A stretch of DNA of 64,000 nucleotides. It comes from Dictyostelium discoideum (taxonomy: Eukaryota). Each line of letters begins with the position of its first letter. The stretch's first letter is position 1. Positions 1,780 to 3,722 of this stretch are shown one piece after another. The DNA lies in NCBI GenBank assembly GCA_000004695.1, contig CM000154.2, forward strand, positions 1,792,001 through 1,856,000, given 5' to 3'. A program made the position numbers and the translations under genes. The notes under the pieces were generated by a model, which was not told the origin of the DNA, did no database searches, and saw nothing but the letters and a program-made list of their open reading frames with translations.

Positions 1780-2201
1780 ATGTTTAAACAACAAAGTAAT
1801 GGAGGAGTGGATATTTTAAAGAAAAGAGATAAGGATGAAGATGAAGAAAGTGATGATAAAAAATCCAAATTTTCATTTGAAATACCAAAACCAATATATC
1901 CTCCAAGAAAAGATATACCATTTTTACCAACTATAGATATACATAATTATACAATGCTTACAACTGTTATAAAAATTAAACAAAATATACCATTTTCAAT
2001 ATATAATTTAAATCAAAAATCTTTTAAAGATGAAGGTAAGCTTTTAAATTATTCTGAATTATTATTAAATAAATAATATTTTATTTTATTTTTTTTTATT
2101 TATTTTTTTTTTTATTTATTTTATTTTATTTTATTTATTTTATTTTATATTATTTTATTTTGGTTGGTACTGTTGGAATCTCTTTTTCTGTTTACTGATG
2201 G

Positions 2202-2260
<59 letters not shown>

Positions 2261-2624
2261 TGGAAAAAAATTATTTTTAAAAAAAAAAGATGGAATTGAA
2301 AGATATTCAAATAGATTTACAAAAGTTAAAGAGAAAACAACATCTATTGAATTAAAATTACCAGGTATTAAATATGGTTATTTTCCATACGATTTGGTAG
2401 TGAATAAAAAGAAACCAAAAAAGAAAGCACTTATAAATACAAAAACATTAGATGGATTACAAAAAGAAGAGGAAGAAGGAAAGGAAGGGGAAAATGAAGA
2501 GGAGGAAGAGGAGGAAGAGGAGGAAGAAGAAGAAGATGGTGATTATGGTGAGGAGGTAGGTGTAGATGATGATGAAGATATGGATGATCCTGATGAAGGT
2601 GGTGATGGTGAGCCTGATTTCTAA
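1780..2624 (+). CDS. RNA polymerase III subunit RPC31/RPC7 (POLR3G-like), paralog 1. Exons 1780..2035 and 2290..2624, phase-1 intron.
   Basis: ORFs 1780..2076 and 2394..2624 join through donor GAAG|gtaagc (intron begins 2036) and acceptor aaaaag| (exon 2 begins 2290), in frame. The product has an N-terminal motif FEIPKPIYPPRKD...IPFSIYNL, then DGIERYSNRF matching the POLR3G IERYSKRY block, and an acidic E/D-rich tail ending GEPDF, as in POLR3G/Rpc31. Confidence 0.7.
2207..2269. repeat. poly(T) homopolymer of about 60 nt
   Basis: Uninterrupted T run inside the intron of RPC31 paralog 1. Confidence 0.9.
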
Positions 2625-2681
2625 AAAGTTTCCCAAAAAAAAAAAAATTAAAAAGATAAAATTACAGACAACAAAAAAATA

Positions 2682-2714
<33 letters not shown>

Positions 2715-3018
2715 AAACAAATAATAGAAATAAAAACAAATGGATATAAATAACAAATGTTCCAAAAACAGATCAACAGGTTTTTTTTCAAAAAAAAAAG
2801 TCAAAAAAAAAAAAAAAAAAAAAAAAAAAGTGAAAAATGAAAAATGAAAAAAAAGATGGAGGATCGCTTGGTAATTCTTTTAATTTTCGTAAATTTTTTT
2901 TTTTATTTTTATAAAAAAAAAAAAAAAAAAAAAAACATAATTTGTTTATATAAAGACGCGTGTATATATTAAATAAGGACAAAAAAAGGTTATTCAGTAA
3001 TATAATATAACAATAATA

Positions 3019-3722
3019 ATGTATAGAGGACCAAGTAATGGTGGTTTATCGAGTTTAGGTAAAAGAGATAGAGATAATGATGATGACGAAGATGGTGAAA
3101 AGAAAGATAAATTATCATTTGATATTCCAAAACCAATATATCCCCCAAGAAAAGATATGCCATCTATACCAATAATTGATAGCGCAAATTATCGTATGAT
3201 TGAATACGTTATTAAATTAAAAGAAAGCATCCCTTTTTCAATTTACAATCTTAGTAGAGATTCAATAAAACCAAAAGGTACCTTATAATATATTCAAATA
3301 TATCATTCAAATAATAACAATAATAATAATTATTAATTTCAATTTCAATTTTTTTTTTTTTTATTGTTAAAAATTGATTTAAATTAGATGGTATTGAAAG
3401 ATATTCAAATAGGTTTGAGAAAAATGATGATACAGGATCAACATTTGAAATAGGTTTAGTAGGTATAAAATATGGTTATTTTCCATATGAATTGGTTGTA
3501 AATAAAAAGAAAACAAAGAAAAAACTCAATATGTCAAATAAAACTATTGAGGAATTACAAAAATTAGAAAAAGAAGGTGGTGAAGGTGAAGGTGAAGGTG
3601 AGGAAAATGAAGAGGAGGAACCAGAAGAAGAGGATGAAGGTGATTATGATGATGGTGGTGGTGTAGATGATGATTCTGATATGGGTGGTGATTCTGATGG
3701 AGATGGTGAAGCTACTTATTAA
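3019..3722 (+). CDS. RNA polymerase III subunit RPC31/RPC7 (POLR3G-like), paralog 2. Exons 3019..3277 and 3388..3722, phase-1 intron at the same position as paralog 1.
   Basis: ORFs 3019..3288 and 3492..3722 join via AAAG|gtacc and ttag|AT. The product (DIPKPIYPPRKDMP...SIPFSIYNL...DGIERYSNRFEKNDD...acidic tail ...GDGEATY) ends in the same EATY motif as human POLR3G, which I recall ends ...DEATY. About 60% identical to paralog 1. Confidence 0.75.

Follow-up and report, generated by a model that had tools for sequence, protein, structure and literature searches.

What does it mean that Dictyostelium discoideum carries, side by side, two genes for what looks like the same subunit of RNA polymerase III (Pol III)? 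A preliminary description of this locus, made from the letters alone, had proposed a tandem pair of Rpc31/POLR3G-like genes and suggested that an amoebozoan duplication independent of the vertebrate one might hint at parallel subfunctionalization. The questions are whether both genes are genuine, when they duplicated and whether the two copies could do different work.

The two genes lie head to tail on the + strand, separated by a spacer that measures 394 bp, close to the 400 bp first described. Their structures, in coordinates of the window (the whole 64,000-nt stretch of DNA that was analysed), are as follows.

1780..2035, + strand: exon 1 of gene 1, with its ATG at 1780, ending at the first base of an Asp codon
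2036..2289, + strand: intron of gene 1, phase 1, 254 nt, GTAAG...AAAG, 10% GC, with a T57 run at 2203-2259
2290..2624, + strand: exon 2 of gene 1, encoding DGIERYSNRF, a basic KKKPKKK patch and an acidic tail to EPDF, then the stop
3019..3277, + strand: exon 1 of gene 2, with its ATG at 3019
3278..3387, + strand: intron of gene 2, phase 1, 110 nt, GTACC...TTAG, 11% GC
3388..3722, + strand: exon 2 of gene 2, encoding DGIERYSNRF, a KKKTKKK patch and a (GE)n-rich acidic tail to GEATY, then the stop

For each gene only one choice of GT..AG splice keeps the frame open over the called length, giving products of 196 aa for gene 1 (exons 1780-2035 and 2290-2624) and 197 aa for gene 2 (exons 3019-3277 and 3388-3722). 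Both introns cut the same Asp codon, between G and AT, directly before GIERY. The intron sequence of gene 1 is not conserved between species. Beside its T57 run lies a relatively G+C-rich block (2161-2203); a small RNA or other conserved element there was considered and rejected, the block being absent from all four of the other species. No tRNA genes were found in the window. Gene 2 is DDB_G0288665 (UniProt Q54IM0), which carries the UniRef name 'DNA-directed RNA polymerase III subunit'. Neither the gene 1 protein nor its 98-aa read-through variant has an exact entry in the protein collection searched; because gene 2 is DDB_G0288665 and the next gene downstream of the pair is DDB_G0288667, we infer, from identifier order only, that gene 1 is DDB_G0288663.

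Protein comparison makes it very probable that both genes are functional paralogues of the Pol III-specific subunit Rpc31 (the C31/RPC7/POLR3G family). The two proteins share 59% identity and 75% positives (BLASTP, E 6e-83), a likeness for which chance is ruled out and which bears out the earlier estimate of about 60%; the blocks singled out there as Rpc31 hallmarks (IPKPIYPPRKD, IPFSIYNL and DGIERYSNRF) are all present in both, as is an acidic tail. The sole Pfam family that either protein matches is PF11705 (RNA_pol_3_Rpc31). Gene 1 scores 37.0 bits against it (E 4.8e-9, residues 78-191), above the gathering score, or curated cut-off, of 30.2 bits; for gene 2 scanned alone it is the best family match, yet at 22.9 bits (E 9.8e-5) the score falls under that cut-off. 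The profile search that had been put forward as a check on the family assignment returns a significant match, above the cut-off for gene 1 only. Gene 2 is nonetheless placed in the family because it is 59% identical to gene 1, because the profile matches POLR3G and because 12 of 14 dictyostelid relatives match PF11705.

When the family profile was aligned with human POLR3G (hhalign), it matched POLR3G residues 32-112 with 94% probability (E 1.4e-7), taking in the PPLFP and DIERYS motifs and pairing the proline-rich N-terminal segment IPKPIYPPRKDIP with human LKPPPLFPDTDYKP, in the RPC7 clamp-binding region. The best match of the profile to a solved structure is yeast Rpc31, a weak one (E 0.32) aligned on DGIERYS, and gene 2 searched with phmmer against PDB sequences gave no match at E <= 1. 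In both Dictyostelium proteins, DGIERYSNRF aligns with yeast DGIERYSDKY and human DIERYSKRY.

The extreme C terminus had been read as a further tie to humans, as gene 2 ends ...GDGEATY (gene 1 ends ...GDGEPDF) and human POLR3G (PDB chain 7a6h_Q) ends DEATY. The match is real, but it is not kept in sister species: an EATY end is limited to this D. discoideum sequence, and the orthologues end EATI, EHVF, EDAF or EAAF, the last residue among Dictyostelium relatives being F, Y or I. Conservation extends only to an acidic tail whose last two residues are a small one and then an aromatic one, as in the EEAAF end of yeast Rpc31.

The age of the pair can be read from its distribution, as the preliminary description had anticipated in proposing synteny as a means of dating. 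Five species (D. discoideum, D. cf. discoideum, D. citrinum, D. firmibasis and D. purpureum) carry the two genes in this tandem order, with the phase-1 intron shared, and the frame, start and stop codons and GT..AG sites of gene 2 are intact in all five. A single copy each was found in P. violaceum (CYY_003729), H. album (PPL_04149), T. lacteum (DLAC_06924) and C. fasciculata (DFA_03423), with no second tandem copy within 6 kb on either side in the latter three. A protein search found no second copy in P. violaceum, which is weak evidence given that the same search also missed known homologues, and the contig stops 175 bp past the gene, so that a tandem copy beyond its end is possible. P. violaceum and D. 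purpureum share an upstream N1221/DUF3402 neighbour. The single-copy dictyostelid Rpc31 genes are orthologues of the pre-duplication gene; some of them carry extra introns.

Neighbour-joining trees, distance-based and built from some 200 residues that evolve fast and are partly of low complexity, were bootstrapped. The ten sequences from taxon group 4 form one group, with the other dictyostelids outside, in 95-100% of replicates. Support for a gene-1 clade that takes in D. purpureum is 93-100%, and for the corresponding gene-2 clade only 27-62%. D. purpureum's own two copies pair with each other in 0-1% of replicates. Gene conversion between the copies was rejected because paralogues from within a species never cluster. 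Synteny and trees together indicate that the pair arose by a DNA-level tandem duplication on the branch leading to Dictyostelium sensu stricto (taxon group 4), after the split from P. violaceum and before D. discoideum parted from D. purpureum, and that its order and orientation have stayed unchanged since. A duplication in the Dictyostelium stem is therefore independent of the one that produced vertebrate POLR3G and POLR3GL, as had been claimed, and with ten sequences grouping apart at that level of support the pair is not orthologous to POLR3G or POLR3GL specifically. The shared intron loses some of its meaning in this comparison. It is indeed of phase 1 and at the same codon in both copies, but it is nothing special to the pair: it also occurs in P. 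violaceum, H. album and C. fasciculata, whose gene is single-copy (T. lacteum is without it), and, preceding the D-x-I-E/D-R-Y motif, it was present already in the single ancestral dictyostelid gene.

The duplication is old, specific to Dictyostelium and retained by selection. Among discoideum-clade species, gene 1 has an omega of 0.04-0.09 and gene 2 one of 0.15-0.27. The gene 2 value is the higher in 98-100% of codon bootstraps, none of which takes it to 1, and at non-synonymous sites the downstream gene evolves 2.5-4 times faster than the upstream one. These rates indicate that gene 1 has stayed near the ancestral sequence under strong constraint, whereas gene 2 changes faster yet is still under purifying selection. 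Counted since the duplication, the acceleration of gene 2 is not significant (Tajima relative-rate test, 13 vs 24 unique changes, p = 0.1), and only three alignment columns hold one residue in one paralogue clade and another in the other throughout the five species, the changes all being conservative (K/R, D/E and E/D).

Both genes also appear in expression data. In the RNA-seq differential-expression lists of Rosengarten et al. 2015 (PMC4403905, Additional file 7, FDR <= 0.01), DDB_G0288665 and DDB_G0288663 share one list, DOWN_Hr16_gradual (sheet filter_DOWN), of genes that fall later than 16 h into development, and are absent from the other lists in that file. Main-text searches on Dictyostelium together with POLR3G, and on these DDB_G identifiers, gave nothing relevant, and nothing on the gene pair was found in the supplements of PMC11367525, PMC6650454 and PMC2864575. 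Upstream-region and intergenic alignments add candidate regulatory sequence to each gene.

1521..1541, + strand: AACTTTTGACAATGAAATCGG, a motif and candidate promoter element lying about 240 bp 5' of gene 1
1607-1620 and 1667-1680, + strand: two copies of TTTTCAAATAATTT, 5' of gene 1, candidate promoter elements
2868..2897, + strand: TTGGTAATTCTTTTAATTTTCGTAAATTTT, a motif of the spacer and candidate gene 2 promoter element, lying about 120-150 bp 5' of that gene

The first of these is kept in D. cf. discoideum and D. firmibasis amid otherwise unalignable A/T-rich DNA, both copies of the second are kept in the four discoideum-clade species, and the third is kept in D. cf. discoideum and D. citrinum and mostly in D. 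firmibasis. The conserved upstream motifs of gene 1 differ from those of gene 2.

If the family assignment is right, each paralogue would occupy the Rpc31 position in the Rpc82-Rpc34-Rpc31 (RPC3-RPC6-RPC7) initiation subcomplex, where it would connect clamp and stalk of Pol III and take part in initiation through its acidic C-terminal tail; the role of the subunit is described in PMC9877311 and PMC1540719, the latter placing Rpc31 in that subcomplex. Because one enzyme takes only one Rpc31, two co-expressed paralogues would be expected to give two Pol III populations. How different those populations might be is where the readings part.

One reading holds that the copies are functionally redundant and have been kept for dosage, or during a slow neutral partitioning of expression, with no role specific to either isoform, and we consider it evenly poised between right and wrong. 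It accords well with the co-listing of DDB_G0288663 and DDB_G0288665 in the same differential-expression class, with functional motifs that are identical in gene 1 and gene 2, and with the near absence of clade-diagnostic residues. It sits less comfortably with the age of the pair, as pure redundancy seldom outlasts such a long divergence, and with the 2.5-4-fold difference in omega, which speaks of unequal constraint on the two copies.

The same age and asymmetry are what lend interest to a second reading, possible though on balance doubtful, in which the paralogues define two putative isoforms of Pol III, distinct in how they are regulated, how active they are or how sensitive to Maf1, and convergent with vertebrate RPC7-alpha/RPC7-beta; this is the parallel subfunctionalization at which the preliminary description hinted. 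Retention of the pair in five species over an estimated 400 million years or so of divergence, asymmetric constraint on gene 1 and gene 2, conserved upstream motifs belonging to each gene and the vertebrate POLR3G/POLR3GL precedent are all consistent with such isoforms. The common developmental down-regulation list, the three conservative clade-fixed columns and the non-significant relative-rate test weigh against them. Carried one step further, and tentatively, the argument would make upstream gene 1 a putative conservative 'housekeeping' subunit and would have DDB_G0288665 tune Pol III output or Maf1 sensitivity at the switch from growth to development.

Two readings that would dissolve the pair altogether are both very improbable. 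Gene 2 might be decaying or unexpressed, as its lower Pfam score (22.9 bits) and faster evolution could suggest, but this is already effectively refuted by its intact structure in five species, by an omega of 0.15-0.27 that never reaches 1 in the bootstraps and by its significant differential expression; because purifying selection acts on both genes and both are in the RNA-seq down-regulated list, neither is a dead pseudogene, the outcome that the preliminary description had named as fatal to its proposal. Nor is it at all credible that the two are unrelated acidic low-complexity proteins resembling Rpc31 in composition rather than Pol III subunits: much of the gene 1 Pfam alignment (residues 78-191) is indeed acidic tail and the PDB profile match to yeast Rpc31 is weak, but the POLR3G match lies within the N-terminal half, which is not acidic, and takes in the D-I-E-R-Y-S motif, the yeast alignment centres on DGIERYS, no other Pfam family was matched and no further Rpc31-like genes were found in D. 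discoideum. All 17 Pol III subunits have been reported for amoebozoans (PMC1540719).

The isoform reading draws its model from vertebrates, and the comparison shows how far the likeness extends. POLR3G and POLR3GL (RPC7-alpha and RPC7-beta) belong to the same protein family as the Dictyostelium pair, both duplications were DNA-based and preserved the exon structure (Renaud et al. 2014 for vertebrates), and in each pair one copy is nearer the ancestral sequence. The pairs have diverged to a similar degree, the human paralogues being 46% identical, compared with 59% here. The vertebrate duplication is placed in a vertebrate ancestor (Renaud et al. 2014), whereas the Dictyostelium event was a separate, local tandem duplication whose products are still adjacent. 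The vertebrate copies are clearly differently regulated and mutually exclusive in Pol III (Renaud et al. 2014; PMC9877311); for the Dictyostelium copies, the one piece of expression evidence found puts both in a single class. The Rpc31 (C31) of Saccharomyces cerevisiae resembles the pair in its DGIERYS motif and its acidic tail with an aromatic end, but it is single-copy, essential, longer (251 aa) and intron-less, and outside DGIERYS its similarity to the Dictyostelium family is weak (profile E 0.32).

In vertebrates, the RPC7 paralogue present in Pol III has been linked to stem-cell state and cancer, and whether the two differ in function or in regulation only is still debated (Renaud et al. 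2014; PMC9877311). What stands now for Dictyostelium is a correct gene-family annotation and a dated duplication, a modest result concerning a kind of duplication that was already known. If the two Rpc31 isoforms are real, vertebrate RPC7-alpha and RPC7-beta would have a convergent counterpart in a haploid organism that is genetically tractable. An independent, anciently kept pair in a haploid organism amenable to knock-out would provide a second natural experiment on why the RPC7 subunit of all subunits duplicates and then persists as two copies.

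Two Rpc31 paralogues, here called gene 1 (upstream) and gene 2 (downstream), lie head to tail on the forward strand of this A/T-rich region (window G+C, 22%), separated by a 394-bp intergenic spacer.

1780-2624, + strand: gene 1; ATG at 1780, exon 1 1780-2035, intron 2036-2289, exon 2 2290-2624; product 196 aa
3019-3722, + strand: gene 2; ATG at 3019, exon 1 3019-3277, intron 3278-3387, exon 2 3388-3722; product 197 aa

Exhaustive enumeration of GT..AG pairs left a single splice per gene that keeps the frame open over the called length: an intron of 254 nt in gene 1 (GTAAG...AAAG, 10% G+C) and of 110 nt in gene 2 (GTACC...TTAG, 11% G+C), with exon G+C of 23-33%. 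The two introns interrupt, in phase 1, the Asp codon (G, then AT) that starts DGIERY. At 59% identity and 75% similarity (E 6e-83), the proteins have in common IPKPIYPPRKD, IPFSIYNL, DGIERYSNRF, GIKYGYFPY, a KKKxKKK patch and a long acidic tail. Gene models and protein comparison thus confirm every element of the preliminary description's tandem pair, its motifs and its intron position.

The gene 1 intron contains a perfect T57 homopolymer (2203-2259), beside which a G+C-richer block (2161-2203) showed no conservation in other species. Because this intron measures 237 nt in another D. discoideum assembly (L001), its length varies between strains. A perfect (TAA)45 microsatellite (3748-3882) begins 26 bp past the gene 2 stop codon, followed by (ACAA)12 (3932-3978); orthologous loci, L003 and L004 among them, have similar AAT arrays in their introns and flanks.

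Profile searches bear out the proposed family. The only Pfam family matched by the pair is PF11705 (RNA_pol_3_Rpc31), with 37.0 bits for gene 1 against a gathering score of 30.2 and 22.9 bits (E 9.8e-5) for gene 2, which falls under that score when scanned alone; 12 of 14 dictyostelid relatives matched this family and no other. Among solved structures, a dictyostelid protein profile ranked yeast Rpc31 (PDB 6eu0_Q) first, with a weak alignment (E 0.32) on DGIERYS, and profile-profile comparison matched human POLR3G with 94% probability (E 1.4e-7) over residues 32-112. Because that match covers the non-acidic half of POLR3G, a composition artefact is ruled out. A library-wide profile search returned plant, fungal and amoebozoan Rpc31-like proteins, and homologues of all seventeen Pol III subunits have been reported in amoebozoans (Proshkina et al. 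2006, PMC1540719). We conclude from these matches that both predicted products belong to the Rpc31/RPC7 family.

The gene 2 product is an exact match to D. discoideum AX4 DDB_G0288665 (XP_636611.1, UniProt Q54IM0), which UniRef labels 'DNA-directed RNA polymerase III subunit', so automatic annotation as a Pol III subunit already exists for at least gene 2. An exact look-up of the gene 1 protein gave no match in the protein collection; since the downstream neighbour is DDB_G0288667, identifier order suggests that gene 1 is DDB_G0288663. A second D. discoideum assembly is 99.4% identical across 9 kb, with identical coding sequences for both genes. No paper found in the literature searched discusses the pair.

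The same ordered pair is present in D. cf. discoideum, D. citrinum, D. firmibasis and D. purpureum, always with the gene-1-like copy upstream, the two copies in one orientation, and each interrupted in phase 1 at the same codon. T. lacteum, H. album and C. fasciculata have one copy, with no second within 6 kb on either side; P. violaceum also has one, on a contig ending 175 bp downstream of the gene, and a protein search of limited sensitivity found no second. In neighbour-joining trees (500 bootstraps, full alignment and non-acidic core), all ten sequences from Dictyostelium sensu stricto (group 4) grouped together with P. violaceum outside (95-100%), which upholds the claim that the duplication was independent of vertebrate POLR3G/POLR3GL. 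Gene 1 sequences grouped with their D. purpureum counterpart at 93-100% and gene 2 sequences with theirs at 27-62%, as against 0-1% for the two D. purpureum copies together, and nothing in the trees pointed to gene conversion between the copies. These groupings place the duplication on the stem lineage of Dictyostelium sensu stricto, earlier than the separation of D. discoideum and D. purpureum, which is estimated at ~400 million years ago (Sucgang et al. 2011).

The shared intron position, although real, is not peculiar to the pair: the single-copy genes of P. violaceum, H. album and C. fasciculata carry a phase-1 intron at the same codon (T. lacteum does not), so the intron is ancestral to dictyostelids. 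Its presence in both copies marks the duplication as DNA-based, as has been argued for vertebrate POLR3G/POLR3GL (Renaud et al. 2014). The number and position of introns vary among outgroup Rpc31 genes: P. violaceum carries an additional phase-1 intron (6625-6706 of its locus, L006) that lies 8 codons ahead of the stop, H. album has three introns, and in T. lacteum the ancestral intron has been lost and another one interrupts the acidic tail.

The genes flanking the pair are as follows.

404-1327, + strand: upstream neighbour ORF, 307 aa; signal-peptide-like N-terminus, hydrophobic C-terminal segments
4243-4683, - strand: DDB_G0288667, 146 aa, next gene downstream of gene 2; UniRef transmembrane protein, no Pfam family
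5088-6101, - strand: GNAT-family acetyltransferase gene; Pfam FR47 / Acetyltransf_1 in orthologous loci

Flanking genes are conserved inside the discoideum clade, and the acetyltransferase gene followed by a P5C-reductase-like gene keeps its order in D. cf. discoideum and D. citrinum. DDB_G0288667 adjoins the D. discoideum and D. cf. discoideum pairs; the corresponding place in D. citrinum, D. firmibasis and D. purpureum lacks it. An opposite-strand N1221/DUF3402 gene adjoins the Rpc31 locus in D. purpureum (L002 1094-4230), as upstream neighbour of the pair, and in P. violaceum (L006 2574-5789); the discoideum clade has a WD40 gene and the 307-aa ORF in its place. Because these upstream neighbours differ, the pair must have stayed intact through a rearrangement and moved as a unit. 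The 307-aa ORF contains an Asn-rich tract encoded by (AAT)22 (584-649); at the orthologous loci it gave no Pfam match, and the protein collection has no entry with its exact sequence.

Within Pol III, Rpc31/RPC7 belongs to the Rpc82-Rpc34-Rpc31 initiation subcomplex. The protein contacts the clamp through its N-terminus, at a site overlapping that of Maf1 docking, and it bridges to the stalk; its conserved acidic C-terminus, essential in yeast, enters the DNA-binding cleft (PMC1540719, PMC9877311). Judging from the family, either Dictyostelium paralogue would fill the single Rpc31 position, and co-expressed paralogues would give two Pol III populations. Across five species, only three columns are fixed differently between the paralogue clades, all conservatively (K/R, D/E, E/D); 49 are invariant in the gene 1 clade and variable in the gene 2 clade, 27 the reverse, and the recognisable motifs are all kept in both copies. 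As first described, gene 2 shares its terminal EATY with human POLR3G (DEATY), but the closest relatives end in EATI, EHVF, EDAF and EAAF, and gene 1 orthologues in PDF, LDF, ADF and TFF. The only conserved feature is the acidic tail with a small residue and then an aromatic one at its end, likewise seen in yeast Rpc31 (EEAAF). Conserved upstream motifs differ by gene (AACTTTTGACAATGAAATCGG and two copies of TTTTCAAATAATTT before gene 1, TTGGTAATTCTTTTAATTTTCGTAAATTTT before gene 2), a pattern compatible with separate promoters and uninformative on different regulation. The sole expression result puts both genes in one class: DDB_G0288665 and DDB_G0288663 (the probable gene 1) each occur once in PMC4403905 Additional file 7, sheet filter_DOWN, column 18 (DOWN_Hr16_gradual, identified from the header and from rows with more columns filled). 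As these lists (Rosengarten et al. 2015) record differential expression at FDR <= 0.01 forward from a reference time point, both listed genes are transcribed and fall after 16 h, at the slug to culmination stage; both are missing from the list of rapid fall at starvation. We give redundancy or dosage about an even chance of explaining why both copies were retained, and consider true specialisation as Pol III isoforms rather unlikely.

Among discoideum-clade species, pairwise omega (Nei-Gojobori) was 0.04-0.09 for gene 1 and 0.15-0.27 for gene 2, higher for gene 2 in 98-100% of codon bootstraps, so that constraint acts on gene 2 too but is 2.5-4 times weaker there than on gene 1. The outgroups likewise resemble gene 1 more closely (identity to P. 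violaceum in the two exons, 63% and 53%, versus 46% and 44% for gene 2); a relative-rate test since duplication was not significant (13 versus 24 unique changes, p = 0.1). That one copy is a pseudogene is effectively excluded by intact frames, start and stop codons and GT..AG splice sites in all ten genes of five species, by a gene 2 omega that never reaches 1 in the bootstraps, and by the RNA-seq listing of both genes, gene 1 under its presumed identifier.

Family profile matches, shared synteny, trees and selection together bear out the core of the original reading, tandem Pol III subunit duplicates. By these sequence comparisons, the pair is a tandem duplication of a Pol III subunit gene that is lineage-specific, ancient and maintained by selection. 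Convergence with vertebrates on Pol III isoforms would be an interesting but hypothetical reading, and to us a doubtful one; the pair itself is a new case of a known type of duplication event.
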